Translations under genes and position numbers: made by a program
Part shown: piece by piece, positions 3,587 to 33,466 of the stretch
Position numbering within the stretch: the first letter of the stretch is position 1
Layout: every line of letters begins with the position of its first letter
The notes under the pieces: generated by a model
What the model was told of the DNA's origin: nothing
The model's database searches: none
The model's input: only the letters and a program-made list of their open reading frames with translations
Source: Candidatus Ryanbacteria bacterium CG10_big_fil_rev_8_21_14_0_10_43_42
GTDB lineage: Bacteria; Patescibacteriota; Minisyncoccia; Ryanbacterales; 2-02-FULL-48-12
Length of the DNA stretch: 64,000 bases
NCBI GenBank assembly: GCA_002793915.1
Contig: PFEF01000008.1
Coordinates: forward strand, 18,159-82,158
Direction of reading: 5' to 3'

Positions 3587-3733
3587 TGCCACATCTTATA
3601 CTAGGTGGTGTTATTTTTATAAAACATACCATAAAACGTAAAGACACATAGGTTTAGCCATGACTTAAGGAACAGATAGACCGTCATGGATAACAGGAAG
3701 ACATGCTAAATATGTGTGCCGTAAAGAAGAATT

Positions 3734-4261
3734 ATGACAAGACCTCTCTATCCTGCTGAACGTGTTGCGGTGTTTATCGATGTACAAAACATGTACCATT
3801 CCGCGCGCAGTTTACATAATGCGCGCGTAAATTTTAAAGAAATACTGAAAGAAGCCGTGGCCAACCGCCACCTTATCCGTGCGTTTGCTTATGTAATACG
3901 TACAAAAACGGGGGAAGAACAGCCGTTTTTTGAGGCACTGCAAAAGCAAGGTATCGAAATTCGCGTACGTGACCTCTTGGAGTTTTACGGGGGTGCTAAA
4001 AAGGCGGATTGGGATGTCGGTATTGTCATCGATGCTATTCGTACATCCGAAATTGTGGATGCTATTGTTCTGGTAAGCGGGGATGGAGACTTTGTTGATC
4101 TGATCGATCATTTGCGTAGCCGCGGACGGCATATTGAAGTTATGGCATTCGGCAAATCAACCTCAAGTCGCTTAAAAGAGGCGGCCGATACATTTATAGA
4201 TATTTCCGAAGAACCGAAAAAATACCTTATCAACATTAAAAAAGGTTCCAGTAAACCATAA
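3734..4261 (+). CDS. NYN-domain (LabA/DUF88-like, PIN-fold) predicted ribonuclease
   Basis: 175 aa; VAVFIDVQN..D..I.....D..VLVSGDGDF motifs of NYN/LabA family; sits between rpsO and pnp. Confidence 0.7.
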   Translation: MTRPLYPAERVAVFIDVQNMYHSARSLHNARVNFKEILKEAVANRHLIRAFAYVIRTKTGEEQPFFEALQKQGIEIRVRDLLEFYGGAKKADWDVGIVIDAIRTSEIVDAIVLVSGDGDFVDLIDHLRSRGRHIEVMAFGKSTSSRLKEAADTFIDISEEPKKYLINIKKGSSKP

Positions 4262-4359
4262 TAATAATTAATATATTAATAACGCAGTTGAAAGGAAAGG
4301 TCTGTAGATAGATAGATGCTTACTCATAGCAAGGCGTCTAAAATCTGGAGATCTGTACC

Positions 4360-4376
4360 GGAATACTGCGTATTCC
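4360..4376 (+). promoter_or_regulatory. 7-bp stem/3-nt loop hairpin (GGAATAC-TGC-GTATTCC) ending 4 nt before pnp start codon
   Basis: perfect inverted repeat at 4360-4366/4370-4376; nearest GGAG (4347-4350) is ~30 nt upstream of the ATG, so the hairpin occupies the RBS position. Confidence 0.3.
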
Positions 4377-4380
4377 ATCA

Positions 4381-11487: not shown

Positions 11488-13428
11488 ATGTCGCAAACAA
11501 ACATCTTAAACGATCTGAATCCCGCCCAACAAAAAGCCGTTCTTACCAAAGACGGCGCTCTTTTGGTTATTGCCGGCGCCGGATCCGGGAAAACAAAGGT
11601 GCTCGTACACCGCATTGCACGCCTTATAGAAACAGGCGTTCGTCCTGAAAACATCCTTGCCGTTACCTTTACCAACAAAGCCGCCCGCGAAATGAAGGAA
11701 CGTGCCATTCAACTATTAACAGGAAACGCACGCTCCGGCGAAACACCCACACCCAAAACCACGCCATGGATAGGCACTTTTCACGCATTGGGCGTTTATA
11801 TTCTCCGGCGACACGGCAGTCATCTGGGCATCCCCGGCAACTTTACCATTCTTGATGAAGATGAGGCGCGGGCCCTCGTGAAACGGCTTTTAAAAGAACG
11901 TTCCGCTGACCCAAAACAATTTCCGCCCGCCCGCATACGCCAAATGATTTCTCACATGAAAAATAATCCCGCGACAAAACATGACGAAGAAGAGGAACAC
12001 ACCTATCCCGAAATAATACGAGATGTATTTCGGGCGTATGAAGAAGAACTTGAACGCGCACATACGCTCGATTTTGATGATCTGCTCGTGCGCACTCTTC
12101 GCTTGCTATCCGAATATCCCGACGTTCTTGCGGCATATCACCGTACATGGCCGTACATTATGGTGGACGAATACCAAGACACAAACCATATACAATACAC
12201 CATAACGAAACTTCTAAGCAAAGGGTCCGGTAATATTATGGTAGTGGGAGATATAGATCAGGCAATTTATTCGTGGCGGGGGGCTAATTTTCGCAATATT
12301 TTGGCATTTGAAAAAGATTGGCCCAAAACAACAGTCATAACGCTTGAACAAAATTACCGCTCAACATCAATAATTCTTGAGGCGGCAAATACGCTTATCA
12401 AAAACAATAACGAACGGCGGGAAAAAAACCTCTGGACGGCAAATGAGGGAGGGGATCGTATTCGCATTACCGTAACGGACGACGAGCGACAAGAAGCGCG
12501 ATATGTTTTGCGAACCATTCATGCTCTTACCCAAAAACATACGCGCCTTAACGATATAGCTATTTTGTACCGCACCAACGCACAATCCCGTGCCATTGAG
12601 GAAGAACTAATAAAACACGCTGTTCCATACCGCCTCGTAGGAGGCACGCGATTCTACGAAAGAAAAGAAATACGGGACATGCTTGCTTATATGCGTATTG
12701 CGCAAAACCCGGAAGACGTCATAAGCATGGATCGCATTCGCAACGTTCCCGCGCGGGGCATCGGAAAGGTTCTCGCGGAAAAATACAAGAATAACATTCC
12801 TCTCACACCAAAGGAACAGAAAAAGATTTCCATTTTTGAAAACATACGGCGCATACTGGAAGAAGCGCGTGCCAAGAAACCCGTAAGCGAATTTTTACAG
12901 ACAATCATCCGGCATACGGCGTATGAATCTTTTTTGCGGGATGGAACAGCAGAGGGAGAAGACCGCTGGGCAAATATTCTTGAGCTTTTTACGGTGACAA
13001 AAGAATATGATTCCGTGCCAGCTCCGCGCGGAACGGAGCAATTTTTAGAGGAAGCATCCCTTCTTGCCGATGCCGACACGGTGGATGAAACAACGGGTGC
13101 TGTGCATCTTATGACCGTACACGCCGCAAAAGGGCTGGAATTTAATACCGTATTTGTTGTAGGACTTGAAGAGGGTGTGTTTCCCCACAGCTTAAGCGCA
13201 TTTTCAGGGGATGAACTCGAAGAAGAACGCCGCCTGTGTTATGTGGCTCTCACACGGGCAAAATCACAGCTATTCCTCACTATGGCACGTACCCGCATGC
13301 TTTACGGAGAAAAAACATGGAATGAACCGTCGCGATTTCTTGCGGAAATTCCGGAACATCTCATAACAGAAACACCATCCAAACCGGCTATTCAAGAAGA
13401 AGATATCATAGGCTACGACATAGGATAA
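11488..13428 (+). CDS. uvrD: UvrD/PcrA-family ATP-dependent DNA helicase
   Basis: 646 aa; Walker A AGAGSGKT, motifs DEYQDTN, VGD.DQAIY.WRGA, helicase C-terminal motifs. Confidence 0.9.
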   Translation: MSQTNILNDLNPAQQKAVLTKDGALLVIAGAGSGKTKVLVHRIARLIETGVRPENILAVTFTNKAAREMKERAIQLLTGNARSGETPTPKTTPWIGTFHALGVYILRRHGSHLGIPGNFTILDEDEARALVKRLLKERSADPKQFPPARIRQMISHMKNNPATKHDEEEEHTYPEIIRDVFRAYEEELERAHTLDFDDLLVRTLRLLSEYPDVLAAYHRTWPYIMVDEYQDTNHIQYTITKLLSKGSGNIMVVGDIDQAIYSWRGANFRNILAFEKDWPKTTVITLEQNYRSTSIILEAANTLIKNNNERREKNLWTANEGGDRIRITVTDDERQEARYVLRTIHALTQKHTRLNDIAILYRTNAQSRAIEEELIKHAVPYRLVGGTRFYERKEIRDMLAYMRIAQNPEDVISMDRIRNVPARGIGKVLAEKYKNNIPLTPKEQKKISIFENIRRILEEARAKKPVSEFLQTIIRHTAYESFLRDGTAEGEDRWANILELFTVTKEYDSVPAPRGTEQFLEEASLLADADTVDETTGAVHLMTVHAAKGLEFNTVFVVGLEEGVFPHSLSAFSGDELEEERRLCYVALTRAKSQLFLTMARTRMLYGEKTWNEPSRFLAEIPEHLITETPSKPAIQEEDIIGYDIG

Positions 13429-13432
13429 CAAC

Positions 13433-14182
13433 ATGCATCCCAAAAAATCCCTCGGGCAAAATTTTTTAACCTCAAAAGAAACGGCAGGGCGCATAGTACG
13501 CGCGGCTACTCTTTCGCCGGGAGACGTTGTGTTGGAGGTGGGGCCCGGAAAAGGAATATTAACAGAACTTCTTCTGGAAACAGGAGCTGTAGTATTTGCC
13601 ATAGAAAAAGATCCGCGCATGGTTCTCTTTCTGAAAGAAAAATTTGCGGATAAAAAAAACTTCACCATTACGGAAGGGGATATTTTAGACAGCACCGTCC
13701 ATGACGTACTGCCCGATACTTATTCTATTGTCGCTAATTTGCCGTATTATATTACATCACATTTCCTGCGCCTTTTTTTGGAAGAATTAAGAAAAAAACC
13801 CGTGTCCATGACGCTCATGGTACAGCGCGAGGTGGCTGATCGTATTATAGCGCGCCCGCCGCACATGAGTTTATTGTCGCTTTCCGTGCAAGCTTTTGGT
13901 ACACCAAAAAAAATACTCAACGTATCCCGCAAACAATTCTCACCGCCACCCGATGTAAATTCTGCGGTAATTACCATACAACAAATTTCTGATGCGTTCT
14001 TTATAAAAAATAATACAACGCCCCAAGAATTTTTCCCCGCAATCAAAAAAGCATTCTCCCAGAAAAGAAAAATGCTTCGTTCATCAATAGGCATTGCGGG
14101 GAAATGTTCCACAAAACGCCCACAAGAATTGTCGTTGCAAAACTGGCTGGATATAGTACCTCTAATAAAAAATGCTTTGTGA
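13433..14182 (+). CDS. rsmA: 16S rRNA (adenine1518/1519-N6)-dimethyltransferase
   Basis: 249 aa; LGQNFL, VLEVGPGKGILT SAM motif, NLPY motif. Confidence 0.9.
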   Translation: MHPKKSLGQNFLTSKETAGRIVRAATLSPGDVVLEVGPGKGILTELLLETGAVVFAIEKDPRMVLFLKEKFADKKNFTITEGDILDSTVHDVLPDTYSIVANLPYYITSHFLRLFLEELRKKPVSMTLMVQREVADRIIARPPHMSLLSLSVQAFGTPKKILNVSRKQFSPPPDVNSAVITIQQISDAFFIKNNTTPQEFFPAIKKAFSQKRKMLRSSIGIAGKCSTKRPQELSLQNWLDIVPLIKNAL

Positions 14183-16254: not shown

Positions 16255-17244
16255 TTGCAATACCTTCCTAGTAAAAAATTTTTTATATTCCTTTTTACTC
16301 TCACAATACTCTTGAGTGTGGGATGGTATTTAAATTCTCCAAAAACACATCAGACAATACAGACAAACACATCATCCAAGAAAAAGGATTCCTCCACAGG
16401 CATCATAGCCAAAAAAGATACGGACGGCGACGGACTTCTTGATTGGGAGGAAACTCTCTGGGGAATGAATCCCGACAATCCCGATACTGACGGGGATGGT
16501 ATTTCTGACAATGAAGAGGTTCTAGCACAGGAACACACGCTTTCTCTTGAATCCATCGCATCCATATCACCCGCCTCCGATACGCTTTCTGACGACGAAC
16601 CGCCTTCTCTCGTTGCTCAAATTGCCCAAGATTTCGGAAAAACGTATCTCCAACAAAAATTCACCACCTCATCAATTGATACGGAGCGCATGAGTACGGA
16701 TCTTGTAACAAAACTGCAAAATACCATTGTCGAAGAATCATCCCGAAATCTTTCCTCACCCTTTAGTGAAAAAGATATTATTGTGATAAAAGAAAACTCC
16801 TCATCCGCTCTGCTTACCTATATAAATGGGCTCGGAAATGCCATACAAAGCATGCCTCATATTGAAAAAAACGGCATACTGCTGTTTACTCTCGGACTTT
16901 CCAAACAAGAAATTATCAGTGAAGATCTTTTTACTGAAGAGCTTACGGGCTACCTGACACTTATAGAGTCGCTTAAAAAAATTCCCGTACCGAAATCCAT
17001 GGCAGATACTCATATCGCTCTGATGAATAACTTCTGGCATCAGTATCAAATTATACGCAGTCTTTCGAAAGTGGACAGCGATCCGGTTCGAGCGCTTGCG
17101 GCATTCAATCGCTATCCCGAAATTGCCGAAGAATCCCTCTCTCCTCTTGGCGCTATTATAGATAGTATTGTTCAAAACGATCTCTCCTTTACCGAAGAAG
17201 ACGGCGGTCTGGTGTTTGTCAGTTATAAGGAATTACGCAAATGA
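16255..17244 (+). CDS. secreted/membrane-anchored protein with thrombospondin-type-3-like Asp-rich Ca-binding repeats
   Basis: 329 aa, TTG start per ORF track; N-terminal signal anchor; DTDGDGLLDWEE..NPDNPDTDGDGISDNEE motif pair. Confidence 0.5.
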   Translation: MQYLPSKKFFIFLFTLTILLSVGWYLNSPKTHQTIQTNTSSKKKDSSTGIIAKKDTDGDGLLDWEETLWGMNPDNPDTDGDGISDNEEVLAQEHTLSLESIASISPASDTLSDDEPPSLVAQIAQDFGKTYLQQKFTTSSIDTERMSTDLVTKLQNTIVEESSRNLSSPFSEKDIIVIKENSSSALLTYINGLGNAIQSMPHIEKNGILLFTLGLSKQEIISEDLFTEELTGYLTLIESLKKIPVPKSMADTHIALMNNFWHQYQIIRSLSKVDSDPVRALAAFNRYPEIAEESLSPLGAIIDSIVQNDLSFTEEDGGLVFVSYKELRK

Positions 17245-18788
17245 AATTTCTTTCCCTACTACGACAGTCTTTCAGATCTCACACTCTTGTTAAGGGAGGT
17301 GTTGCTCTTTTTATAGTTGGTAGTATATTCCTTCCATTCGTTCGTACGGCCGATGCCGTAGTTCCCGTACACTGCCCGACCATCTGCCAAACATGGGATG
17401 TTGCGCTTTCGGGAAAAATAGGCGCATCACCCGAAAGATGGTTTGCCACGAAAGAACATAGTTCAACCGGCCTTGCAAGCGTTACGGGGATCGTTGACGC
17501 AATAACAAACCCTTCACTCGATGCCATTCTTTGGGAAATAGCACGCGTTATCTTACGACAATTCGCTGAAAATATTATTGAATGGATTAAAACCGGCCAA
17601 GATCCGTTCTTTTTCGGCGGTACAAACGGGGGGTTATTCGTAACAAACATAGATGAGTTTGTGCTTGATGCGGCGGATAATGCGGCAGGCGTCTTTCTTT
17701 CGGAATATTTGGGAGATGCATATGATAATCTATGTTCTCCGTTTCGTCTTGATGTAGCACTTGGCCTGGGACACAGTTACGGGCGTGATTACGGCAGTTT
17801 TAAATATCAGGCACGGTGCAGTATAACCGACATTGTTGCCAACCTCGAAGATTTTTATAACGATTTTGAAAACGGCGGCTGGGAAGCATGGTTTGCAACG
17901 TCTCGCTATGAAAATAACCCCTTAGGCCTTCTTACTCTTTCCGTGGAAACTTCCATTGGCCGCGAAACGCGCGCCGCAAATGCCAACATTCTTGATTTTT
18001 CAGCCGGTCTCGGTTTTCTGGGTCTTCGCGAGTGTCCGCCGGAAAACCAGATTCCCGGCCCCACACAGGATGGAAAACCGCTTTGTAAAAATAACGGCTA
18101 CATAACAAAATCTCCCGGAAAAGCCGTAGAGGATCAATTAGCCGATGCACTTGGTCAAGATATCCGTCAGCTGGAAATAGCCGATGAAATGAACGAAATT
18201 ATTGCCGCCATTTTTGATGAACTTCTTTCCTGGGCATTGGGAGGCGCCGGCGGGGGACTCCTTGGTTACGAAAAAGGATCCGTTCCTGATTTTCCGGATC
18301 CCGGCGATACGGGAGCGCTTTCCTGTGCCCGCGCAACAGGAAAACCCAGTGGCTGTGAATGTTCATTTAATGAACAGTGCGCAAGTAAAATATGTAATGG
18401 AAGTCTGGTATGTGAGGCACCTCCAACACCGCCCGATATTCCCGGAGGAGGAACAACACAGTGCTCGGACGGTTTTGATAATGATGGCGATCGCCTTATA
18501 GATTCCGCCGATCCCGATTGTGTTGATGCAAATGACGATTCAGAAGCTTACCCTCTTCCCGAATGTAGTGATGGTCTTGATAATGACGGGGATTTACGAA
18601 TTGATTTTCCTGTTGATCCCGAATGTCCCAATGCTCTCTTCAACGACGAAACAGGAGGACCACCACCTCATTGTAGTGATGGTCTTGATAATGACGGGGA
18701 TAGCCTCATCGACTGGCCGGATGACCCGGGATGCAGAGACATATTTGATGATCGTGAAACGGATACTCCAAACCCGACTGAAAACTAA
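17241..18788 (+). CDS. secreted protein with three C-terminal CSDGxDNDGDxxID..DP.C repeats (putative Ca/metal-binding)
   Basis: 515 aa; signal anchor; start overlaps previous stop (ATGA); 29-nt exact DNA repeat tgtagtgatggtcttgataatgacgggga at 18564 and 18671. Confidence 0.55.
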   Translation: MKFLSLLRQSFRSHTLVKGGVALFIVGSIFLPFVRTADAVVPVHCPTICQTWDVALSGKIGASPERWFATKEHSSTGLASVTGIVDAITNPSLDAILWEIARVILRQFAENIIEWIKTGQDPFFFGGTNGGLFVTNIDEFVLDAADNAAGVFLSEYLGDAYDNLCSPFRLDVALGLGHSYGRDYGSFKYQARCSITDIVANLEDFYNDFENGGWEAWFATSRYENNPLGLLTLSVETSIGRETRAANANILDFSAGLGFLGLRECPPENQIPGPTQDGKPLCKNNGYITKSPGKAVEDQLADALGQDIRQLEIADEMNEIIAAIFDELLSWALGGAGGGLLGYEKGSVPDFPDPGDTGALSCARATGKPSGCECSFNEQCASKICNGSLVCEAPPTPPDIPGGGTTQCSDGFDNDGDRLIDSADPDCVDANDDSEAYPLPECSDGLDNDGDLRIDFPVDPECPNALFNDETGGPPPHCSDGLDNDGDSLIDWPDDPGCRDIFDDRETDTPNPTEN

Positions 18789-18806: not shown

Positions 18807-20936
18807 ATGATTTCTTTTTTGCAAAATAAAATACTCCTTTTTAGTGGCATACTCCTACTTACGCTGTTTGCGGTGTTTTCGCCGGCGGTATCGCATAGCG
18901 CGGATGCTCAATTTTATTCCGAATGCATAAATAACGTAATACCGGGAAAAATCGAATATGCTTTATGCGGCGAGGGCGCAACACTAAAAGCCGCCGCAGA
19001 CGCTTGTGCGGCAAAAGGGTGTACAGGGCTTCAATTTCAATGTCTTGGATCCTCGGCGGGATCTTGCCCCACACCTCCTGTTGATCCCACCGCCACACTC
19101 ACAAAGGCAGCCGGTGGTGCCGTCGTGCAGTACGTTCTTCCGAGTGTTATCAAGGCTCTTATCGGTATAATACAATTTCTTAATTCCGTTCTTGTCTGGG
19201 TGGTGGGAATTGTGGCACGTCTATTTGATCAAGCTGTTGCCATAGCGCTTGCCGGCTTTGGACAATTAAAATTTATTGAACTGGGCTGGACTATCGCGCG
19301 CGATGTTGCCAACATATTCTTTATTCTTATTCTTCTTGTTATTGCCATTGCCACCATCCTGCGTGTTGAAACATACGGCATAAAACAACTCCTTCCGCGC
19401 CTTGTCATTACCGCTCTTCTTATCAACTTTAGTTTGGTAATATCATTTGCCGTGGTAGATGCGTCCAATCTGTTAGCGCTTCAATTTATAGAGCCCATTT
19501 ATCCGGTATCTAATAAAATTGCTGATGTTATGAATATCAGCCAAATAACAGCGCTTAACGCGGGCACTTCACCAAGAACAGAAATTGAGTTTACCGATGC
19601 GGTTACTAACGGTTTTTACGATGTTCTTAATAAGTACAATAACTCCCCTGTAGCAAATCCAAGCGCTGCGACCGCAATGGCTCTCGGCCAAGCTCCCAAC
19701 CAGTTTGACCCTCTTATAGTAGATGGCTTGTTTCAGGTTATCATTCTTATTCTACTGCTCATTCTTATATTTGTGTTTATAGCGCTTGGCGCCCTTCTTA
19801 TCATTCGCACCATTGCTCTCATGGTTATATTTGTTTTCGCCCCTATCGGATTTATCGCCGGCATACTCCCGCAAACAAAAGGATATAGCACGGACTGGTG
19901 GCGGGCACTGTTTAACTGGTCATTCTTCTTTCCGGCATCCGCCTTCATGATGTACCTTGCCATACAATACGGAAAAGAAATAAGCGCCATCGTACGAGAT
20001 TCTCAAACGCTTAATACCGCCGCTCTATTCAGTTATGTGAGTATCGCCGCCATCCTGCTTGGCTCCATCTTGGTGGCAAAGAAAATGGGTATCTATGGAG
20101 CTGATGCCGCCATCAATATTGGCAGAAAGATACAAAAAAGTGCGCAAGGATATGCCGGTAGGGGAACTAAAAACTTAGGATTGCGAGCTACCGGGGGAGT
20201 AGCGCAAAGCGTCACGAAAGGCGTCTCAAGCATTCCAGTAATAGGCGGCGTACTAGCTAAAACTCCTGCCGCTATTGTGCGCGCAGACGAAAAGAGAAAA
20301 AGTGAAAAAGAAAAACAATACCGTGAAATTGCGAAAGGTTCCAAAACCGCCGTTCGAGCGGCACTCCAGGGAACAGCTCTTCCGGGCAATAAAGAACTTA
20401 TCCGGCGCCTTGCCGTTGAAGAAGGAAAAGCGGATGCATTAGACACCGCAGACCTTAGGCGCGATCACGCAAAATACATCACCACAGGAAATACGAAAGC
20501 TATTAAGAATATTGAAAAAGTACTTCCTGAACTTGCCGCTACCCGCGGAGCAACTCCTCAAGAGCAGGAACTAAATCTCAACCAAGCGGTATCAAACCTA
20601 ACCGTAAAAGATATTCAGGATAATCTTAGGGAAGATTCTCTTGCCAACGAAAAGGTTCAGAATGCGCTTCTTTTGGCGGCAAAATCAAATGTATTGGAAG
20701 CGGGATTGGATGAATTTGGAAAGAAATTTGGTGATGCATTGGAAAGCGCATACACTCGCTTAAAAAGCATTACACCGCCTCCCGGAACTTCTCAAGAACT
20801 GCATGCATACGATAAACTAAGCAGATCGACCGCGAAATTCTTTGTCGTAAGTCCGGGCGCTCAAATTCTTAATTCGAAAATAAGTCATGAAATTGCGTCT
20901 TCAGCTAAAACAAGAGGTCATAATTTTAATCCTTAA
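18807..20936 (+). CDS. large polytopic membrane protein, VirB6/TrbL/PrgH-like by topology and context
   Basis: 709 aa; signal peptide, Cys-rich ~90-aa ectodomain, >=6 TM helices, ~300-aa hydrophilic C-terminal domain; positioned upstream of VirB3-like and VirB4 genes. Confidence 0.5.
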   Translation: MISFLQNKILLFSGILLLTLFAVFSPAVSHSADAQFYSECINNVIPGKIEYALCGEGATLKAAADACAAKGCTGLQFQCLGSSAGSCPTPPVDPTATLTKAAGGAVVQYVLPSVIKALIGIIQFLNSVLVWVVGIVARLFDQAVAIALAGFGQLKFIELGWTIARDVANIFFILILLVIAIATILRVETYGIKQLLPRLVITALLINFSLVISFAVVDASNLLALQFIEPIYPVSNKIADVMNISQITALNAGTSPRTEIEFTDAVTNGFYDVLNKYNNSPVANPSAATAMALGQAPNQFDPLIVDGLFQVIILILLLILIFVFIALGALLIIRTIALMVIFVFAPIGFIAGILPQTKGYSTDWWRALFNWSFFFPASAFMMYLAIQYGKEISAIVRDSQTLNTAALFSYVSIAAILLGSILVAKKMGIYGADAAINIGRKIQKSAQGYAGRGTKNLGLRATGGVAQSVTKGVSSIPVIGGVLAKTPAAIVRADEKRKSEKEKQYREIAKGSKTAVRAALQGTALPGNKELIRRLAVEEGKADALDTADLRRDHAKYITTGNTKAIKNIEKVLPELAATRGATPQEQELNLNQAVSNLTVKDIQDNLREDSLANEKVQNALLLAAKSNVLEAGLDEFGKKFGDALESAYTRLKSITPPPGTSQELHAYDKLSRSTAKFFVVSPGAQILNSKISHEIASSAKTRGHNFNP

Positions 20937-20941
20937 TTTAT

Positions 20942-22141
20942 ATGGCAACACTTACACCACAAGAAGCGGATCAACGCATACAACGTCTCCCAAAGGCGCT
21001 TCGGCACGTTTTGTTTGCGGGAGCTACGGCTGACGCCGTATTTGATATTGGTACAAAATACAAACTTCTTATCGATAAAATGGGAGAACTGGCGTCCGAA
21101 ATAGGCGACTTTATGATCGGTGCCACAAAACCAAATGAATTTGTCGGTAATTTGGAACGTCGCCTTCAAATAGATAAAAGCGTTGCAAAACAAATAGCCG
21201 ACGATGTTAATAAGCAAATATTCGCCCCCGTCCGAAAAGAACTTCGTGAACTTCATGGCGTGGAAGAAAGCGATAAAGACACAAAAACGGAAGAGGTTCC
21301 CCAAAATATTGCGGAAACAACGGAACAAAGTACCGCTTCTTCCTTATTTGACGACAAACTTAATTTCGTAGAAGAAGAAGGAAAGAGTCTTTCTTTTGTA
21401 AAAAACAGCTCCATTGAAACATTAAAACGCGAACTTGATGAAGCGGTAGAAGAACCCCCTCACTTAAAAGAAAGTCATTCCTACTCACGGAATGACCCGT
21501 ACCGTGAGTCCATCACCAATGATGCATCTCCGCCTCCAAAACCATTCCCTAAATCAATAAAACCGCCGGAAGAAAAAGCCCCGCCTCCGCCGGAAGAAAA
21601 GATCACACCCGCATCTCCCATGTTCTCCCGTCTTCCCGAAACAACCCTTCAACCCAAAAAGAATATTCCTCCCGCCGCACCTGTTCCGTATACAAATGAA
21701 AAACCTTTTTCTTCCTCTCCATTTAGAAAAATACCGTCTCCGGGACCAAAGGCTGTTATCGACATAGATACCATAGCCAATGAAAAAGTTTCTTTTACCC
21801 CTATAGAAAAGAAAAATGACCCGCCTCCACCGCTCACCTCTTCCTCGCAAGAAAAAGAGCCTGTTAAAGAAATAACCCCCGTATCTCCGCCTGAAATAGT
21901 ATCTCTTGAAGAAAAATCTCCGGAAACCATACCAAAAGGAGGCGCTATCCCCACATTTCGCGGATTTTCCGCACAAAAGAAACAAGTGGAGGGCGTCCCT
22001 CGTGTACCGGATTACTTGCGTCCGGCCGCTTCTCCGCCTCCGCCAAAACCACCAACGCCACCCAAGCCAAACCCCGTAAAACAAAACCTTTCTCCTTCAA
22101 AACAAGATGAAAGCGATCCCTACCGCGAACCAATATCATAA
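20942..22141 (+). CDS. proline/glutamate-rich low-complexity protein, unknown function
   Basis: 399 aa; globular ~110-aa N-terminus then PPPKPxP / PPEEK repeats. Confidence 0.5.
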   Translation: MATLTPQEADQRIQRLPKALRHVLFAGATADAVFDIGTKYKLLIDKMGELASEIGDFMIGATKPNEFVGNLERRLQIDKSVAKQIADDVNKQIFAPVRKELRELHGVEESDKDTKTEEVPQNIAETTEQSTASSLFDDKLNFVEEEGKSLSFVKNSSIETLKRELDEAVEEPPHLKESHSYSRNDPYRESITNDASPPPKPFPKSIKPPEEKAPPPPEEKITPASPMFSRLPETTLQPKKNIPPAAPVPYTNEKPFSSSPFRKIPSPGPKAVIDIDTIANEKVSFTPIEKKNDPPPPLTSSSQEKEPVKEITPVSPPEIVSLEEKSPETIPKGGAIPTFRGFSAQKKQVEGVPRVPDYLRPAASPPPPKPPTPPKPNPVKQNLSPSKQDESDPYREPIS

Positions 22142-22173: not shown

Positions 22174-22662
22174 ATGCAACAATTTCAGGTACCACAATTT
22201 ATTCAGGTGGAAGATAAAATTTTCGGTCCTCTCACCACAAAACAATTCTTCTATCTTCTGGGTGGAGGCGGGCTTTCCTTTTTATTTTGGTTTTTCTTCA
22301 ATTTCTGGATCTTCATCATACTTTCCATTCCTGTCGTAGCACTCGCACTCGCACTCGCATTTTACACGGTAAATGGACAGCCTCTTGTTTCTGTTATCGG
22401 AAACTACTTTGGCTACATAGCACGCCCCCGTCTCTTTATCTGGAAAAAGAAGGAACATTTTTCCAAAAAAGATTCTGTCATAACGGGCGGAGGCGGGGGA
22501 CTGCACATACCAAAAGTATCCCAGGATAAACTAAAGGACCTCGCATGGTCTTTAGATGTTATGGAGCATGTAAAGCGAGAACGTCCGCCAAACATTCGTG
22601 AAAATGCATTCCCCGCGAATAAAGATAAGGACAACGTCCCTCCGCGCACGACCGACGTCTAA
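22174..22662 (+). CDS. small 2-TM membrane protein, VirB3/PrgI-like by position
   Basis: 162 aa; two adjacent TM helices; gene directly precedes VirB4 N-domain ORF. Confidence 0.45.
   Translation: MQQFQVPQFIQVEDKIFGPLTTKQFFYLLGGGGLSFLFWFFFNFWIFIILSIPVVALALALAFYTVNGQPLVSVIGNYFGYIARPRLFIWKKKEHFSKKDSVITGGGGGLHIPKVSQDKLKDLAWSLDVMEHVKRERPPNIRENAFPANKDKDNVPPRTTDV
22339..22359 (+). repeat. (GCACTC)x3.5 hexanucleotide tandem repeat inside CDS (encodes ALALALA)
   Basis: direct reading of 22339-22359. Confidence 0.5.
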
Positions 22663-22679
22663 TAATATAAATCTTTTCT

Positions 22680-23330
22680 ATGGCACAATCCACACGCCCC
22701 GCACAAGACATTGTCTCCATAAAGGAAGTTCGTGACGGCGTTCTTCTTTTGAAGGACGGTTCTTTTCGTGTGGTACTTATTGCTTCCTCTATTAACTTCG
22801 CTCTTAAATCGGGTGAGGAACAGGACGCTATCGTGCTTCAGTACCAAAATTTTCTTAATTCGCTTGATTTCTCCGTTGAATTCTTTATTCAATCACGCAG
22901 ATTGAATATTGATCCATACCTTGATATTTTACGCGAACGCCTTAAACACACCTATCATGATCTTATGAAAATTCAAATTACCGAATATATCGACTTCGTA
23001 GGTTCATTTGTGGATTCCGCAAATATTATGACAAAGAATTTTTATATCGTTGTTCCCTTTACGCCGGGCGGATCTTTAAAGAAAAAAGAAGTACAAAGCG
23101 TTTTTTCCTCTTTATTTAAGGGAGGAAAGGAATCAAAGCCGATTGAAGAAGGAGCCTTTGAAGAATATAAAACGCAATTATACCAGCGTGTGGAGGTTGT
23201 CCGGCAAGGACTTATACGCACAGGCGTGCGCGTTGTACCGCTTAACACCGAAGAATTAGTGGAGCTGTTTTATGAACTTTATAATCCGGGAGAAGCGGAG
23301 AAGGGGAAGATACCGGAAACAACCGGTTAG
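22680..23330 (+). CDS. VirB4-family N-terminal domain encoded as separate ORF
   Basis: 216 aa; IVSIKEVRDGVLLLKDGSFRVVLIASSINFALKSGEEQDAIVLQYQNFLNSL resembles N-terminus of Gram-positive-type VirB4 (TraE/PrgJ/TcpF); different frame from 23398 ORF. Confidence 0.55.
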   Translation: MAQSTRPAQDIVSIKEVRDGVLLLKDGSFRVVLIASSINFALKSGEEQDAIVLQYQNFLNSLDFSVEFFIQSRRLNIDPYLDILRERLKHTYHDLMKIQITEYIDFVGSFVDSANIMTKNFYIVVPFTPGGSLKKKEVQSVFSSLFKGGKESKPIEEGAFEEYKTQLYQRVEVVRQGLIRTGVRVVPLNTEELVELFYELYNPGEAEKGKIPETTG

Positions 23331-23397
23331 GGCACCATATATTGGCTTTTTGGAAATGGTTCCAAGAAACCAATACCCGGCATCCTAATATTACACT

Positions 23398-25221
23398 ATG
23401 GGTTTATTTGATTCCCTTACGGGGAAAAATAAGAAAAAAGAGGATGAAATTCTTCCTGTATTTCCGCAGGATATTTATGCCGCCGGCATGCTTGATTTGG
23501 GAGATGCTATAGCTCCCGCGGCTCTTGAGGTGAATTCCAGCTATATTCGCCTCGGTGAAAAGTATGCCCGCACCATATTTGTATTTACCTATCCGCGATT
23601 TCTTGCGACTAGCTGGTTTGCTCCCATCATTAACCTGGATAAAATATTCGATGTCGCAATATTTGTCCATCCCGTAAACACCGTTATTATTTTGCGCGAT
23701 CTTAGAAAAAAAGTTGCCGAAGTGCAGTCGCAAATTTCCTTGCGCGAAGAAAAAGGACTGGTGCGCGATCCGGTGCTTGATACCGCATATCAAGATCTTG
23801 AAGCGCTCCGCGATAAACTGCAACAAGCCCAAGAAAAATTATTTAGCTTGGGACTCTATATAACCGTATATGCCGATACGCTCAAGGAGTTAGATGATTC
23901 GGAAACTGAAATTCGATCTCTTCTTGAAGCCCGTTTGGTATACGCAAAACCGGCATTGTTTCAACAGCAGGAGGGTCTTACGAGCACATTTCCTTTAGCA
24001 CTTGATGTGTTAAAAATAAGCACCTACATGAATTCTTCTCCTATTTCGAGTATTTTTCCTTTTGTTTCCTTTGATCTTACATCCAATCGCGGTATTTTAT
24101 ACGGCATCAATCGGCACAATAACAGTCTTATCTTATTTGATCGCTTCACCCTTGAAAACTATAATACGGTAATCTTCGCAAAAGCCGGTGCCGGAAAATC
24201 ATACATGACAAAACTTGAAATCCTTCGCTCCCTTATGTTTGACGTAGAGGTGATTGTGATTGATCCGGAAAGAGAATATGAGTATCTTGCCGAAACGGTG
24301 GGAGGACGCTTCTTTAATATATCGGTAAACTCGCCTCATCACATCAACCCCTTTGACCTTCCGTTTCCGCAGGATGATGAATCGGTGGCAGACGTACTCC
24401 GTTCAAATATCATAAACCTTGTCGGACTTTTTCGTATTATGCTGGGCGGCTTTACGCCCGAAGAAGATGCTATTTTAGACCGCGCCATTACGGAAACTTA
24501 TGCCGCAAAAGATATTACCCCCGATGCTGATCTTACAAAAGTATCTCCTCCTCTTCTTTCCGACCTACAAACCATTCTTGCTGACATGGAAGGAGGGGAT
24601 CATATTGCCGTCCGGCTAAGAAAGTATACCGAAGGAACGTGGGCCGGATTCCTCAATCACCCCACCAATATCAATATCGACAAACATATCGCCGTATTTT
24701 CACTGCGGGATATGGAAGAGGAAATTCGTCCGGTGGGTATGTATATCGTTACCCATTACATCTGGAATGTTGTGCGTTCAGAGCTTAAAAAGCGTATTTT
24801 AATCGTAGATGAGGCGTGGTGGATTATGAAAACGGAAGATGGTGCCTCTTTTTTGTACGGTCTTGCGAAGCGTGCGCGTAAATATTACCTGGGTGTTACT
24901 GCCATTACACAGGATGTTACTGATTTTATCAGCTCCACCTACGGAAAACCTCTTATAACCAACTCCTCCATTCAAGTTCTTCTCCGCCAATCACCCGCAT
25001 CTATCGATATTATCCAGCAAACATTCAACCTTACCGATGAAGAAAAGTTCCTTTTACTGGAATCAGATGTGGGGGAGGGTATTTTCTTCGCGGGATTAAA
25101 GCATGTTGCCATTAAGGTTATTGCGTCGTATACGGAAGATCAGATAATTACATCCGATCCGGCGCAATTACTGGCCATTAAAAAAGCGAAAAAAGATCTT
25201 ACGGAACAGGAGGGATTATAA
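23398..25221 (+). CDS. virB4: VirB4/TrbE/CagE-family type IV secretion ATPase (C-terminal ATPase portion)
   Basis: 607 aa; Walker A AKAGAGKSY, Walker B ILIVDEAWW, downstream motifs GVTAITQD; overall VirB4-like organisation. Confidence 0.8.
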   Translation: MGLFDSLTGKNKKKEDEILPVFPQDIYAAGMLDLGDAIAPAALEVNSSYIRLGEKYARTIFVFTYPRFLATSWFAPIINLDKIFDVAIFVHPVNTVIILRDLRKKVAEVQSQISLREEKGLVRDPVLDTAYQDLEALRDKLQQAQEKLFSLGLYITVYADTLKELDDSETEIRSLLEARLVYAKPALFQQQEGLTSTFPLALDVLKISTYMNSSPISSIFPFVSFDLTSNRGILYGINRHNNSLILFDRFTLENYNTVIFAKAGAGKSYMTKLEILRSLMFDVEVIVIDPEREYEYLAETVGGRFFNISVNSPHHINPFDLPFPQDDESVADVLRSNIINLVGLFRIMLGGFTPEEDAILDRAITETYAAKDITPDADLTKVSPPLLSDLQTILADMEGGDHIAVRLRKYTEGTWAGFLNHPTNINIDKHIAVFSLRDMEEEIRPVGMYIVTHYIWNVVRSELKKRILIVDEAWWIMKTEDGASFLYGLAKRARKYYLGVTAITQDVTDFISSTYGKPLITNSSIQVLLRQSPASIDIIQQTFNLTDEEKFLLLESDVGEGIFFAGLKHVAIKVIASYTEDQIITSDPAQLLAIKKAKKDLTEQEGL

Positions 25222-26800: not shown

Positions 26801-27199
26801 ATGCGTATATTCTTCTTTATTGTAATAATCCTGTTATTCTTTTCTGTCGGGTGGTTGGGGGCGGATGCCGCCACTTACAACCTGCTCGCGCCCTTGCCGG
26901 GCGGAACAGCATCTATTGATACCAGTAACGGCTTTATTACCTATATTTCTCAAATTTTCTGGTTTCTCTTAAGTGCCGCCGGCATTTTAGCTGTTCTTAT
27001 GCTTATTTTTGCCGGAGCCGAATATGTGGGCGCCGCCGGAAACCCCAGTGTTATAAATGACGCAAAAAGCCGTATTTTTAATGCTATCCTTGGCCTCCTT
27101 CTCGCACTTACGGCATATCTTATTTTAATAACGATAAACCCCAATCTGATTAATTTAAAATTAACTGTTCCTCCCATTCCGGCATCCGTAAATCCTTAG
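26801..27199 (+). CDS. small secreted protein with two hydrophobic helices, VirB2/TrbC-pilin-like topology
   Basis: 133 aa from ATG 26801 (longest ORF from 26702 overlaps upstream gene); signal peptide ..GADA then two hydrophobic helices separated by a short polar loop. Confidence 0.4.
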   Translation: MRIFFFIVIILLFFSVGWLGADAATYNLLAPLPGGTASIDTSNGFITYISQIFWFLLSAAGILAVLMLIFAGAEYVGAAGNPSVINDAKSRIFNAILGLLLALTAYLILITINPNLINLKLTVPPIPASVNP

Positions 27200-28422: not shown

Positions 28423-28893
28423 TTAGGTTGTATTTGTTGAAGGTTTTATAACCACACGCCTGGTTTCTCCCTCCCCGATGCTTTCCGTCTCTATGTCAGG
28501 ATCTTCTGCGAGAGATACGTGAATAATACGGCGCTCGTATGCGCTCATGGGCTGCATAATAACTTCTTTTTTAAAATACCGCACACGTTGAGCGCTCATA
28601 CGTGCTCTGTCTTTAATTTCTTCAATGCGTTTTCGCTGGTAATCATTAACGTCAATAAGAAAGGGAATATACTCATCTCCCAAAACCCGCTCCGCCATGC
28701 GCTTTACAATAGCATGAAGTGCCAATAAGTGCTGTCCATTTTCCCCTATTAAAATGCCGCCGTCAGGCGTTTTAATATGAAAACATACGCTATCTATAAG
28801 CTCTGTTTCTTCAACCGAAGACACAATATTCATTCGTTTAAGCGTTTCTTCAAGAAGACTTCGTATCACCGGCGTTGTTTCGTTCTGGTTCAT
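28423..28893 (-). CDS. jag: Jag/KhpB-like RNA-binding protein (KH + R3H)
   Basis: 156 aa; R3H-like C-terminus; located downstream of yidC as in rnpA-yidC-jag operons; start may be at later Met because 44-nt overlap with yidC. Confidence 0.75.
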   Translation of the reverse strand: MNQNETTPVIRSLLEETLKRMNIVSSVEETELIDSVCFHIKTPDGGILIGENGQHLLALHAIVKRMAERVLGDEYIPFLIDVNDYQRKRIEEIKDRARMSAQRVRYFKKEVIMQPMSAYERRIIHVSLAEDPDIETESIGEGETRRVVIKPSTNTT

Positions 28894-29647
28894 GATCTTG
28901 GGAAGATGTGGCCATTATTATCTGTGCTTTTCTGCGCACGATTGACTCGTGGATAATAGCAAATAGGTTCATTGTTGTCCAATAAAGCGCAACAGCAGCC
29001 GGGAAACGAAGTCCGATTATAAAAATAACAATCGGCATTACGTACATCATCTGCGATGTCATGATACGGGAAATGTCGGGCATACCGGAAGAAGACTCTT
29101 TTGGCGGTGTTTTGGGGGATGGAGGCATTGCCAACTTCATTTGAATAAATTGTGTGATTGCAGCTAAAGCCGCCACAAAAACACTCGCCTCCATAAGATC
29201 GATAACCCCGAAAAACATGGTATGTATCGTTTCCGGCAACGCAACAAAAGAGTAAAGCTCTCCCGGAATCGTTTCCATATTAAGTCCGGCCCCAAAAACA
29301 TGATAAAGCGCAATAAGAATGGGGAGTTGCACAATAAGCATCAGGCATCCCGAAAAAGGATTAACGCCGTGCTCCTTATACAATGCCATAATCTTTTGCC
29401 CTTGTTCCTGCTGATTATCTTTATGTTCTTGGCGTATTTGGGAAATTTTTGGCTCAAGTGTGCGCATTTTTGCCTGCGCTTTCACTGAATGATGAGTAAA
29501 AGGAAACAATAAAAACCGCACCGCAATCGTAAGGATAATAACAGCAAAACCAAGATCATGAAATGGTAAGAATGTCGTTAAAAGAATAAGCGCATTTAAG
29601 AGCGGTTTATGGAGAATTTCGTTATAGAGTGTTATAAAAATATTCAT
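28850..29647 (-). CDS. yidC: membrane protein insertase YidC (short, monoderm-type)
   Basis: 265 aa; 5 TM; conserved YidC core motifs (LLPFH..LT...RFLLFP, PILIALY). Confidence 0.85.
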   Translation of the reverse strand: MNIFITLYNEILHKPLLNALILLTTFLPFHDLGFAVIILTIAVRFLLFPFTHHSVKAQAKMRTLEPKISQIRQEHKDNQQEQGQKIMALYKEHGVNPFSGCLMLIVQLPILIALYHVFGAGLNMETIPGELYSFVALPETIHTMFFGVIDLMEASVFVAALAAITQFIQMKLAMPPSPKTPPKESSSGMPDISRIMTSQMMYVMPIVIFIIGLRFPAAVALYWTTMNLFAIIHESIVRRKAQIIMATSSQDHEPERNNAGDTKSS

Positions 29648-29656
29648 TGGTAATTA

Positions 29657-29890
29657 TTACTTAACAGGATCATATATATCATGCCGAGAAAAAGGGTGGC
29701 ACCTGCCAATACGACGCATGCCACACCATATTCCTTTTATAAACCCATATGTTGTGAGCGCATTTATGGTGTATTCGGAACAAGATGGGTAAAAACGACA
29801 CGTGCGAGCACGCCCTCTCATAAAGAATCCATGATCAGGTGAGAAAAAAAAGCGATACGTCTTTATAATATATACGGCTACTAAGACCAT
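29657..29890 (-). CDS. yidD: membrane protein insertion efficiency factor YidD
   Basis: 77 aa; CRFYPSCSEY...GRCHP motif. Confidence 0.8.
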   Translation of the reverse strand: MVLVAVYIIKTYRFFFSPDHGFFMRGRARTCRFYPSCSEYTINALTTYGFIKGIWCGMRRIGRCHPFSRHDIYDPVK

Positions 29891-29898
29891 GTTTACTA

Positions 29899-30273
29899 TT
29901 AATCTATTTCTAACTTAGAGTGCTTACTTCTATCGTTCATGATAGCACTTTTTTTCAGTATTATCTCTATATGTTTTTTCATATCCTTATAAGATATACC
30001 GACAATATCCGGGTACGTACGCAATACGCAATCATACCCACCGGAGAGAGAAGGCAGATAAAATCGTATAATCTCATGAAGCTGTCTTCTAAGACGATTT
30101 CTAACAACAGCATTCTTGGAAACAGCTCCGGAAACAACAAAACCGAATCGTATATACTTTCGGTCTGTTCTGCTATATAAGAGCGTAAGGGGACCGCTTC
30201 GGGCCGTATGACGAGCGTCAAACACCCCCTTAAAATCTCCTCTGCTTACTAAACGATGTGTTTTAGGTAGCAA
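29899..30273 (-). CDS. rnpA: ribonuclease P protein component
   Basis: 124 aa; LPKTHRL...RNRLRRQL motif. Confidence 0.85.
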   Translation of the reverse strand: MLPKTHRLVSRGDFKGVFDARHTARSGPLTLLYSRTDRKYIRFGFVVSGAVSKNAVVRNRLRRQLHEIIRFYLPSLSGGYDCVLRTYPDIVGISYKDMKKHIEIILKKSAIMNDRSKHSKLEID

Positions 30274-30301
30274 TTTCCTTTATTTACAAGGTTTTTATAG
30301 G

Positions 30302-30436
30302 TTATACCGTAAGCTTGGCCCGCCCCTTTCGACGTCGTCGAAGAAGGACGTTTCTTCCCGTCTTTGACAACGAACGCTTTAGAAATCCATGCGTACGCTT
30401 ACGTTTTTTGTTCTTTGGTTGATAGGTAACTGACAT
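30302..30436 (-). CDS. rpmH: 50S ribosomal protein L34
   Basis: 44-aa translation [44 protein letters not shown]; not in ORF track (short). Confidence 0.85.
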
Positions 30437-30680
30437 ATCAAACACCATACCATACTTTCTTTTATACTTCAATATGGATGTTTATTTTCTCTAAAATAAG
30501 AAGTTCATACACAGGTTATACACAATTGATTGATTTTGAGGATAATATGTGGATAATTTTTTTCTTTACCTCTTTTCTGATACAATATACATACAAAGAA
30601 AAAATATACGGCATGTGGATAATATATTTCCCTTTTTTCTTAACTTTGAACCTTTTAGTCACCCATAACTGTTCTTAATT
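30437..30680. promoter_or_regulatory. oriC-associated region upstream of dnaA with DnaA boxes
   Basis: TTATACACA at 30516-30524; TGTGGATAA (revcomp TTATCCACA) at 30548-30556 and 30614-30622; rpmH/dnaA divergent junction. Confidence 0.5.
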
Positions 30681-32057
30681 ATGACAAACGAGGAATTATG
30701 GCAGGCAGTTCTCGGGGAAGTTGAGCTCGCTATCTCACGCGCTAACTTCATAACGTGGTTTAAACACACATCTATTGCACAAAATGAACATAATGGCATC
30801 GTAGTACATGTACCAAATGCCTTTACGAAGGAATGGTTGGAAAATAAGTATCATAAGCTTATTATGCGGGCTCTTAGAAGTAATAATCCCGACGTACGCA
30901 GTATTGAATACGTTATCTCATCCTCTCCACCGCCCATATATACTCTCGACACACCATCACGGCCGCAAGCGGTCGTTATTGAAACGACCGGACAAGAAGA
31001 ACAGCTTGATTTTCAGGACTTTAGCGTTGACAAAGAAACAAATCTTAACCCTCGTTATACTTTTGATACGTTTGTCGTTGGGGGGTTTAATGAACTTGCT
31101 CATGCGGCGGCAATGTCTGTTGTAAAAAACATAGCGTCCCTCTATAATCCCTTGTTTATTTATGGTGGTGTGGGTCTTGGAAAAACCCATCTTTTGCAAT
31201 CCATCGGGAATGCGGTTAAAAAAGAAAATCCGTCTCTTTCCGTGCATTATGCAACATCAGAAAAATTCACCAACGATCTTATTACCGCCATACAAAACAA
31301 CGAACCCCAACGATTTAAAGACCGTTACCGTAAATTCGACGTTCTTATTATCGATGATATTCAGTTCATTGCCGGAAAGGTGCGTACCCAGGAAGAGTTT
31401 TTTCATACATTCAATGCATTGTATGAAAACAATAAGCAGGTTATTTTTTCATCCGACCGACCGCCAAAATCAATCCCCGATCTGGAAGAACGCCTTCGTT
31501 CTCGCTTTGAAGCCGGTCTTATTGCTGATGTATCCCAGCCCGACTACGAGACACGCCTTGCTATTACACGATCAAAAGCCGCCGCACGCAACCTTTCCGT
31601 TCCGCCTGAAACCCTTGAATATATAGCCTCCGCCGTCGAAAAAAACATCCGTGAACTTGAAGGAGCGCTTAATATAGTCGTTGCACGAAGTAAAGTACTA
31701 GGACGCCCGCTTACTCCCGAAGAAACAAAGGAAATCCTTCTTCAAATAATTAATAAGCCGAAAAAAGTCATTACCGCGGCGCGAATCATTAAGGAAGTTT
31801 GTCAGTTATATGATATTCAGGAACGCCACTTATTTGAACGAAGCCGTAGGCGTGAAATTGTACGTCCCCGTCAGATAGCCATGTATCTTCTACGTCAAGA
31901 TTTTGGAGGATCCTTTCCGTATATCGGACAAAAATTTGGCGGCCGTGACCATACGACAGCTATTCATGCCTATGAGAAGATTTTACGCGACATGAAGACC
32001 GATACAAAATTGTCCGATGAAATAAATATGCTTCGCGATCAAATCTATGAAACGTAA
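30681..32057 (+). CDS. dnaA: chromosomal replication initiator protein DnaA
   Basis: 458 aa; Walker A GGVGLGKTHL, DnaA signature, C-terminal HTH (GGRDHTTAIHA). Confidence 0.95.
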   Translation: MTNEELWQAVLGEVELAISRANFITWFKHTSIAQNEHNGIVVHVPNAFTKEWLENKYHKLIMRALRSNNPDVRSIEYVISSSPPPIYTLDTPSRPQAVVIETTGQEEQLDFQDFSVDKETNLNPRYTFDTFVVGGFNELAHAAAMSVVKNIASLYNPLFIYGGVGLGKTHLLQSIGNAVKKENPSLSVHYATSEKFTNDLITAIQNNEPQRFKDRYRKFDVLIIDDIQFIAGKVRTQEEFFHTFNALYENNKQVIFSSDRPPKSIPDLEERLRSRFEAGLIADVSQPDYETRLAITRSKAAARNLSVPPETLEYIASAVEKNIRELEGALNIVVARSKVLGRPLTPEETKEILLQIINKPKKVITAARIIKEVCQLYDIQERHLFERSRRREIVRPRQIAMYLLRQDFGGSFPYIGQKFGGRDHTTAIHAYEKILRDMKTDTKLSDEINMLRDQIYET

Positions 32058-32362
32058 GGATATTCCGTACATAACCCCATAAAAAGACATTACAAAAGAC
32101 AAAGGGGATTACCCGTTAATAACAAGTGGTGAATCTACGTATAACATAGTTGTAAGATATCCCTCCCGAAAAACACCTTCACATACCATACATGTTATAC
32201 CCTACTTCCTCCTCTTTTTATCCCCACACCGATTACACATAAGACGATGTGCAGTAGGAGATTTATGAAGTTATCCACCTATCCACAGGCCTTACTACTA
32301 GTGCAAAAAATAATAATTATTTTCTTTATTACTAATAAGTAATTAATAAAGATCCGGAATAT
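32058..32362. promoter_or_regulatory. oriC-associated region between dnaA and dnaN: tandem DnaA boxes plus AT-rich tract
   Basis: TTATCCACC 32271-32279 and CTATCCACA 32279-32287; AT-rich 32305-32350. Confidence 0.5.
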
Positions 32363-33466
32363 ATGAAATTCACCGTTCTCAAAGACAATCTAAAGGAAGC
32401 CGTTTTATTGGCGGAAAAAACCACCGGACGCAAGTCTTCACTTCCTATATTGTCCGCTATATTAATAACAGCTGAAAAGGGGCGTATTACTCTTACTGCC
32501 ACAAATCTTGAAACCGGCATTGAAATTACATTACCGGGCAAGATTGAGCAAGAAGGAAGAATAGCGGTTCCGGCGCGTGTTTTAAGTTCTTATGTAGGTT
32601 TACTTAGAGATGAGCAAGTAGAAGGATTACTTGAGGGGGATAATTTGGTATTAAAAACAGGTGCGGGACGAACAGTTATGCGTGTGTATCCAGCGGATGA
32701 ATTTCCTCTTCTTCCTAAAACAGAGGAGGGACATATGATTGAATTACCGGCACGTACAGTACGCGATTCACTTAGGCGTGTTGCGGTAGCGGCGGCAACG
32801 TCTGATATAAAACCTGAAATTGCGAGTATTTTATTCGCCTTTACACCAAAGGATCTTATAATAGCCGCAACGGATAGTTTTCGGCTTGCGGAAGCGAAAA
32901 TTACCGGGACATACGGAGTTTCCGGTGATGGTATGCGTTTTTTATTGCCGGTACGCAGTGCACATGAACTTGTGCGCCTCTTAGATAATGAAGACGGATC
33001 GGTAGAGGCTTATATTTCCAAAGGGTATGTTACGTTTTTAACAAAACGCTTCCGTATGGTCTCCCGGTTAACGGAAGGTGTATATCCGGATTATGAGCGC
33101 ATTATACCGACAAAATTTATTACAGAGGCGCAGGTGAAGCGAGATGATGTGTTAGAAATGCTTCGTCTGTCCAGTGTGTTTATAGGAAAACTTCAGGATG
33201 TTGCGTTGTTTGTAGATCCTGCTGGTATTATGCGTGTTGATACGGTAAATGCGGAAGTGGGTGAAAATACATCTCATATTCCGGTAGAGGCTAAAGGAGA
33301 AACAATGCAGATAAGTTTTAATCATCGTTATGTTCTTGATGGTCTTACGCAATTACCTGGTGGAGATACGTTTTTTGGCTTTACATCCGCTTCCGGTCCT
33401 TTGTTAATGCAGAGTAAGGGGGAGGAGGGAAGGTATAGATATATTGTTATGCCAATGAAGGTTTAA
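32363..33466 (+). CDS. dnaN: DNA polymerase III beta sliding clamp
   Basis: 367 aa; three-domain beta-clamp pattern; immediately after dnaA. Confidence 0.9.
   Translation: MKFTVLKDNLKEAVLLAEKTTGRKSSLPILSAILITAEKGRITLTATNLETGIEITLPGKIEQEGRIAVPARVLSSYVGLLRDEQVEGLLEGDNLVLKTGAGRTVMRVYPADEFPLLPKTEEGHMIELPARTVRDSLRRVAVAAATSDIKPEIASILFAFTPKDLIIAATDSFRLAEAKITGTYGVSGDGMRFLLPVRSAHELVRLLDNEDGSVEAYISKGYVTFLTKRFRMVSRLTEGVYPDYERIIPTKFITEAQVKRDDVLEMLRLSSVFIGKLQDVALFVDPAGIMRVDTVNAEVGENTSHIPVEAKGETMQISFNHRYVLDGLTQLPGGDTFFGFTSASGPLLMQSKGEEGRYRYIVMPMKV

Follow-up and report, generated by a model that had tools for sequence, protein, structure and literature searches.

The VirB4 ATPase of a type IV secretion system (T4SS) in Candidatus Ryanbacteria bacterium CG10_big_fil_rev_8_21_14_0_10_43_42 appears to be encoded by two adjacent genes. 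Both lie in a 64,000-nucleotide (nt) stretch of contig PFEF01000008.1 (positions 18,159 to 82,158, assembly GCA_002793915.1), hereafter the window, which matches a Candidatus Ryanbacteria (Parcubacteria/Patescibacteria) metagenome-assembled genome (MAG). Open reading frame 1 (ORF1), at 22680-23330 on the forward strand, runs from ATG to TAG and encodes a TrsD/TraD-like, free-standing VirB4 N-terminal module of 216 amino acids (aa). ORF2, at 23398-25221 on the same strand, starts with ATG and encodes the 607-aa VirB4 ATPase body. The two are separated by an intergenic spacer of 67 nt (23331-23397, forward strand), which overall contains stops in all three frames. A first-pass annotation of the window had described the two ORFs, their spacing, and their different frames exactly as they exist. 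As judged from sequence comparisons, ORF1 and ORF2 are two real, separately translated genes, split by design, and together they represent a full-length monoderm VirB4. The assembled product is very probably a naturally two-subunit VirB4, consisting of a TrsD-like subunit and an ATPase body and acting with PrgI.

The first-pass annotation had left three explanations side by side: the split could be genuine, it could reflect a frameshift (programmed or authentic), or it could stem from a pseudogenizing indel or a sequencing error. Only the genuine split withstood the comparison with relatives. In the window, a TAA codon at 23386-23388 lies in the frame of ORF2, after the ORF1 stop codon and 9 nt before the ORF2 ATG, so that no single frameshift or indel can join the two ORFs. 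An identical pair of 216 and 607 aa recurs across independent assemblies from ENA, from JGI (three samples), and from NCBI. The same split had been proposed as something to look for in orthologous loci, and 80 loci from different species-level genomes were compared, 77 of which hold both genes. In all 77, the ORF1 homologue (209 to 268 aa) ends at its own stop codon and is followed by a separate ATPase ORF. Both halves are intact across these genomes, at identities of 52% to 68% (ORF1) and 66% to 80% (ORF2). A pseudogenizing indel or a sequencing or assembly error that split one virB4 gene would account for the difference in frame, and MAG assemblies can carry indel errors, but nothing beyond the frame difference speaks for it. 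Given the TAA codon, two changes would be needed, and an error is hard to reconcile with the identical pair in independent assemblies, with intact halves in 77 genomes, with thousands of stand-alone homologues, or with the same architecture in the functional conjugative plasmids pGO1/pSK41. We regard damage of this kind as extremely improbable.

Programmed ribosomal frameshifting or another form of recoding, which would yield a single-chain VirB4 of 823 aa, is just as improbable. The frames of ORF1 and ORF2 differ, their summed length is that of a single-chain VirB4, and one relative, P0365, is fused, all of which would suit recoding. However, the TAA codon blocks joining by one shift, and neither the frame relationship nor the distance between the genes is fixed among relatives. 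Of 81 tabulated rows, including four duplicate copies of the window locus (L001 to L004), 49 have a frame offset of 1, 19 an offset of 2, and 13 an offset of 0. The intergenic gap in relatives ranges from -23 to approximately 500 nt; it is mostly 1 to 14 nt, and sometimes the genes overlap slightly. Within the Ryanbacteria-like lineage (the window spacer and those of loci L006, L007, L011, L033, and L077), the gap is 67 to 179 nt, compared with 1 to 14 nt in most other Parcubacteria. These long spacers have no conserved sequence in common, and the window spacer has neither a promoter-like nor a terminator-like consensus and no Rfam match. The marks of a programmed frameshift, which are overlapping frames, a slippery site or stimulator that is conserved, and an offset that does not vary between relatives, are thus lacking: the stop precedes the ORF2 ATG, offsets and gaps vary, and the spacer is unconserved.

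In five relatives, a whole gene stands between the two halves, which again argues against recoding and, together with the TAA codon, the independent assemblies, and the 77 loci, leaves the genuine split as the explanation that holds. The gap in these relatives is 430 to 500 nt, and the inserted genes encode proteins of 118 to 146 aa of the PF05635 family (23S_rRNA_IVP, a bAvd-like four-helix bundle). They are located at 2159-2643 in locus L038, 4631-5126 in L042, 4622-5053 in L059, 4649-5109 in L061, and 4622-5071 in L070. The three copies scanned (L038, L059, and L061) match PF05635 with E values of 1e-16 to 1e-35. The inserted copy in L042 seems to be broken.

ORF1 corresponds to the beginning of VirB4. 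It matches the NCBIfam model VirB4_plasma (NF045975, Mbov_0397 family) at model positions 106-251 of 894 (E = 1.3e-7) and the CD1110-family VirB4 model (NF045971) at positions 2-74 of 752 (E = 8.6e-6), and the resemblance to monoderm VirB4 N termini claimed in the first-pass annotation is thereby borne out. Both models are also matched by each of the 25 ORF1-family members that were aligned, with best E values of 3.6e-11 and 1.9e-9. What that annotation missed was TrsD/TraD as the named family for the N-terminal piece and the published arrangement in Patescibacteria (PMC12102498). The NCBIfam TrsD/TraD model (NF041427) is matched by ORF1 with 22.9 bits (E = 6.2e-5) and by all 25 family members (best E = 1.9e-9); the membership cut-off of this model is 200 bits, and ORF1 is therefore a remote homologue only. 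The gene context of ORF1 is that of a TrsD-type gene, with a length of about 200 to 230 aa and a position after a VirB3-like gene and right before a short ATPase (about 600 to 670 aa). The precomputed Pfam domain on ORF1 is PF26593 ("TraC-like"). The Pfam copy searched, which is apparently older than PF26593, gave no significant family for ORF1; its sole match, DUF3855 (E = 0.015), was taken as chance. In current annotation, the 216-aa gene is a "hypothetical protein" and the 607-aa gene is named "TraC" or "DUF87".

Approximately 7,880 homologues of ORF1 were retrieved, of which the best 120 are all stand-alone proteins of 207 to 236 aa. An exhaustive search of representatives gave 2,149 clusters, and 149 of the top 150 representatives at 50% identity are short proteins. 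Many representatives of the family (P0251, P0265, P0276, P0295, P0308, P0376, and others) have 100 to 250 extra residues at the N or C terminus, and these extensions have no Pfam match. The AlphaFold2 (AF2) model of ORF1 has an alpha/beta fold with a predicted local distance difference test (pLDDT) score of 73.8. In a Foldseek search of the PDB with this model, TrwK/VirB4 chains of R388 account for 13 of the 15 best matches, all of them weak (E values of 3e-3 to 6e-2; template modeling [TM] scores of 0.25 to 0.35). A profile search of PDB sequences with the ORF1-family profile gave no match at an E value of ≤10.

ORF2 combines the P-loop C-terminal domain with the more distal section of the VirB4 N-terminal domain. 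Its match to the CD1110-family VirB4 model reaches 350.3 bits (E = 2e-104), with a cut-off of 325 bits, and extends over model positions 185-733 of 752, while its match to NF045975 extends over positions 292-893. The Pfam matches are P-loop_TraG (E = 2.8e-24), AAA_10, and DUF87, and a GAGKS motif is located at residues ~265-269. Besides the CD1110 model from position 185, residues 1-250 match the tail of TraC_F_IV and CagE_TrbE_VirB. Like those of ORF1, the 120 best ORF2 homologues are all stand-alone, with lengths of 586 to 631 aa, and the nearest homologues all belong to Ryanbacteria, Giovannonibacteria, or Paceibacterota. ORF1 and ORF2 cover complementary, nonoverlapping parts of the VirB4 models. 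Between them, the two proteins contain a P-loop C-terminal ATPase domain and the VirB4-specific N-terminal domain, the latter in two pieces, and they are encoded in a T4SS cluster with PrgI, TrbL/VirB6, and T4SS_pilin genes adjacent. Instead of the single polypeptide usual for VirB4, there are two ORFs, which are kept as two genes in all relatives holding both.

The fit of the two pieces can be read directly from the fused relative P0365 (797 aa), whose gene is located at 544-2937 in locus L086 (GCA_964615945.1, contig CAZTUR010000004.1). In collinear order, ORF1 aligns with residues 1-214 of P0365 (39% identity), and residues 29-605 of ORF2 align with residues 225-795 (56% identity). The break between ORF1 and ORF2 coincides with a linker that is unconserved and only about 10 residues long. 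The length of P0365 also supports the earlier statement that the combined 823 aa equal a normal single-chain VirB4. The P0365 locus is itself a Patescibacteria T4SS, with PrgI upstream and jag-yidC-rnpA-dnaA-dnaN downstream. P0365 is the only fused form among the top 150 ORF1-family representatives and is present on one contig only; it may be a secondary re-fusion or an assembly artifact.

A different fusion was found in Actinomycetota. A 349-aa "PrgI family protein" of Embleya sp. (WP_331738713.1), encoded at 3620-4669 in locus L087 on plasmid NZ_CP108778.1, contains a PrgI/VirB3 domain at aa 14-101 (E = 1.3e-17) followed by an ORF1/TrsD-like domain at aa 129-247 (hhalign probability of 96.5%, E = 8e-10). 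Its gene is followed by an XF1762-family gene, a separate 643-aa VirB4-type ATPase gene, and a type IV coupling protein (T4CP) gene. The PrgI fusion is established for the Embleya protein only; the N-terminally extended family members P0376, P0346, P0304, P0289, P0336, and P0389 were also considered as PrgI fusions, and a Pfam scan found nothing in them. The ORF1-type module is thus joined to VirB4 in some lineages and to VirB3 in others, and it is free in Patescibacteria and in pGO1-type systems. These alternative fusions provide Rosetta-stone support for a complex of PrgI, the N-terminal module, and the ATPase.

ORF1 could also be an independent accessory T4SS protein, such as a chaperone, a regulator, or a substrate adaptor, that has only ancient ancestry in common with the VirB4 N terminus. 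The similarity of ORF1 to VirB4 N termini is indeed remote, extra residues are present in some of its relatives, and TrsD homologues of Gracilibacteria are mostly not beside virB4, according to PMC12102498. However, the match of ORF2 to the CD1110 model begins only at position ~185, whereas that of ORF1 begins at position 2, leaving an ATPase that lacks exactly the segment that ORF1 supplies. The collinear fused relative P0365, the tight adjacency of the two genes in all 77 loci (often 1 to 7 nt), and the identical breakpoint in pGO1 also argue against an accessory protein, and we consider such a role unlikely.

For the two-subunit VirB4, prgI, ORF1, and ORF2 are most likely co-transcribed, and each is translated from its own start codon. 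The TrsD-like subunit would bind noncovalently to two partners, PrgI/VirB3 at the membrane and the ATPase body. Such binding would rebuild the VirB4 N-terminal domain from ORF1, which is equivalent to residues 1 to ~200 of a single-chain VirB4, and ORF2, and the rebuilt domain would anchor and organize the hexameric ATPase where the channel has its base. Cryo-electron microscopy of the R388 system has shown that VirB3 wraps the VirB4 N-terminal domain and that this domain mediates VirB4 dimerization (PMC9259494). Because of this arrangement in R388 and the alternative fusions, ORF1 is most likely the part of the VirB4 N-terminal domain that lies close to the membrane and docks onto VirB3, present as a separate subunit. 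The predicted docking partner is the PrgI encoded at 22174-22662.

A more far-reaching and rather doubtful interpretation is that the N-terminal module, beyond being a detached fragment of VirB4, is an exchangeable adaptor, whose covalent partner (the ATPase, none, or VirB3/PrgI) varies by lineage. If so, the split would let the cell set the stoichiometry or timing of the module apart from the motor. VirB3 docking might, for instance, be confined to the "central" VirB4 copies, or there might be gating of motor assembly in the T4SS of epibiotic Patescibacteria. The breakpoint shared with pGO1 would then mark the Patescibacteria T4SS as descended from a pGO1-like, already split ancestor of the mating-pair formation (MPF) class FATA.

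The two genes belong to a chromosomal T4SS cluster. In order, it contains a 709-aa TrbL/VirB6-like polytopic membrane protein gene (18807-20936, forward strand; Pfam TrbL PF04610, E = 2.4e-6), the gene of a 399-aa proline-rich protein, a 162-aa PrgI/VirB3-like membrane protein gene (22174-22662, forward strand; Pfam PrgI PF12666, E = 1.3e-10, above the gathering score), ORF1, and ORF2. The PrgI gene is also annotated as such in the duplicate contigs (L001 to L003). ORF2 is followed by genes of two proteins without a family match, a 132-aa VirB2-type T4SS pilin (26801-27199, forward strand; Pfam T4SS_pilin PF18895, E = 7.2e-7), and a 400-aa protein. As a mechanical ORF, the pilin gene opens at a GTG at 26702, which gives it a 92-nt overlap with the 337-aa gene before it; gene calls in the duplicate contigs L001 to L003 make the pilin 132 aa long, which places its start at ~26801. 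The gene of the 399-aa protein (20942-22141) separates virB6 from prgI, and virB6 is preceded by the gene of a 515-aa protein (17241-18788). Neither protein matches a Pfam family, and the positions of both genes are conserved in the duplicate contigs; they may be lineage-specific T4SS components. No relaxase or T4CP gene was seen in the window T4SS cluster itself.

The cluster abuts the replication-origin gene set (28423-33466). Directly downstream, jag (R3H) and yidC lie within this interval on the reverse strand, together with rnpA (29899-30273, reverse strand), dnaA (30681-32057, forward strand), and dnaN (32363-33466, forward strand). Upstream of the cluster are uvrD (11488-13428) and ksgA (13433-14182). 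Among 14 genes of this region (11458-32362), almost none has a Shine-Dalgarno (SD)-like motif within 30 nt upstream, and the leaders are AT rich, which suggests that initiation in this genome is predominantly SD independent. The absence of an SD motif upstream of ORF2 carries no information, as hardly any window gene has such a motif.

The split architecture of TrsD and VirB4 is already known for Patescibacteria and for staphylococcal plasmids. In Quinonero-Coronel et al. 2025 (PMC12102498), TrsD is described as remotely homologous to the VirB4 N terminus, as more abundant in Patescibacteria than any other T4SS component, with 1,664 of 2,272 homologues adjoining virB4, and as essential in Southlakia epibionticum. 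TrsD is treated there as a separate component with "no function assigned", and the Patescibacteria T4SS clusters are placed near dnaA, dnaN, rnpA, and ksgA, with which the neighbors of the window cluster agree. Because the available text of Guglielmini 2014 (PMC4027160) is silent on TrsD, the homology is cited from the 2025 paper. The available text of PMC12102498 contains no explicit description of TrsD and the short VirB4 as complementary halves with the pGO1 breakpoint, and it mentions neither a fused relative nor a PrgI-TrsD fusion.

The additions made here are minor, comprising the explicit complementarity, the breakpoint shared with pGO1, the fused relative, the PrgI fusion, and the gene insertions between the halves, and the result is an incremental refinement rather than a discovery. 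It is of use for annotation, as the pair could be misflagged as a frameshifted pseudogene by pipelines or readers. Read as a TrsD-like subunit plus a VirB4 motor, the pair is modeled correctly, within an apparatus that many Patescibacteria possess and that is essential to their epibiotic growth. The complementary tiling and the alternative fusions also give TrsD a concrete, testable role as the putative VirB3-docking half of the VirB4 N-terminal domain.

Compared with known systems, the window is an instance of the Patescibacteria T4SS (Wang et al. 2023, on Southlakia epibionticum, and PMC12102498), sharing VirB4 of the Patescibacteria clade, TrsD, PrgI/VirB3, VirB6, and a VirB2-like pilin, and it agrees with this clade in its nearest homologues, cluster content, and origin-proximal flanks. 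The closest known system outside the Patescibacteria is that of the Staphylococcus aureus plasmids pGO1/pSK41 (MPF-FATA T4SS, pGO1 subclass), with which TraD and TraE of pIP501 are grouped. In pGO1/pSK41, trsC (VirB3-like) and trsD (227 aa) are followed, after a 14-nt gap, by trsE (672 aa), an order mirrored by prgI-ORF1-ORF2; PrgI is the counterpart of trsC and ORF2 that of trsE. TrsE of pGO1 and ORF2 are collinear from residue 33 onward in both proteins (24% identity, E = 1e-41), which indicates the same breakpoint in pGO1 and the window. In a single-sequence hhalign comparison, TrsD of pGO1 is collinear with the ORF1-family profile, with a probability of 7%, which is not significant alone. 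The same split was found in a Pontibacillus (Bacillota) megaplasmid, beside a gene named CD1110-family VirB4 by the Prokaryotic Genome Annotation Pipeline (PGAP). Whereas pGO1/pSK41 are conjugative plasmids, the window cluster is chromosomal, lies beside dnaA, and includes a VirB2-type pilin. In single-chain monoderm VirB4 (CD1110, NF045971; Mbov_0397, NF045975), whose models are tiled end to end by ORF1 and ORF2, and in the diderm TrwK/VirB4 of R388, the source of the best PDB matches of the ORF1 model, VirB4 is one polypeptide, whereas the window encodes two. The SCO6880-like PrgI-family proteins of Actinomycetota, such as that of Embleya, contain the same N-terminal module and are likewise followed by a separate short VirB4 ATPase; there, however, the module is joined to VirB3/PrgI, whereas in the window it is free-standing.

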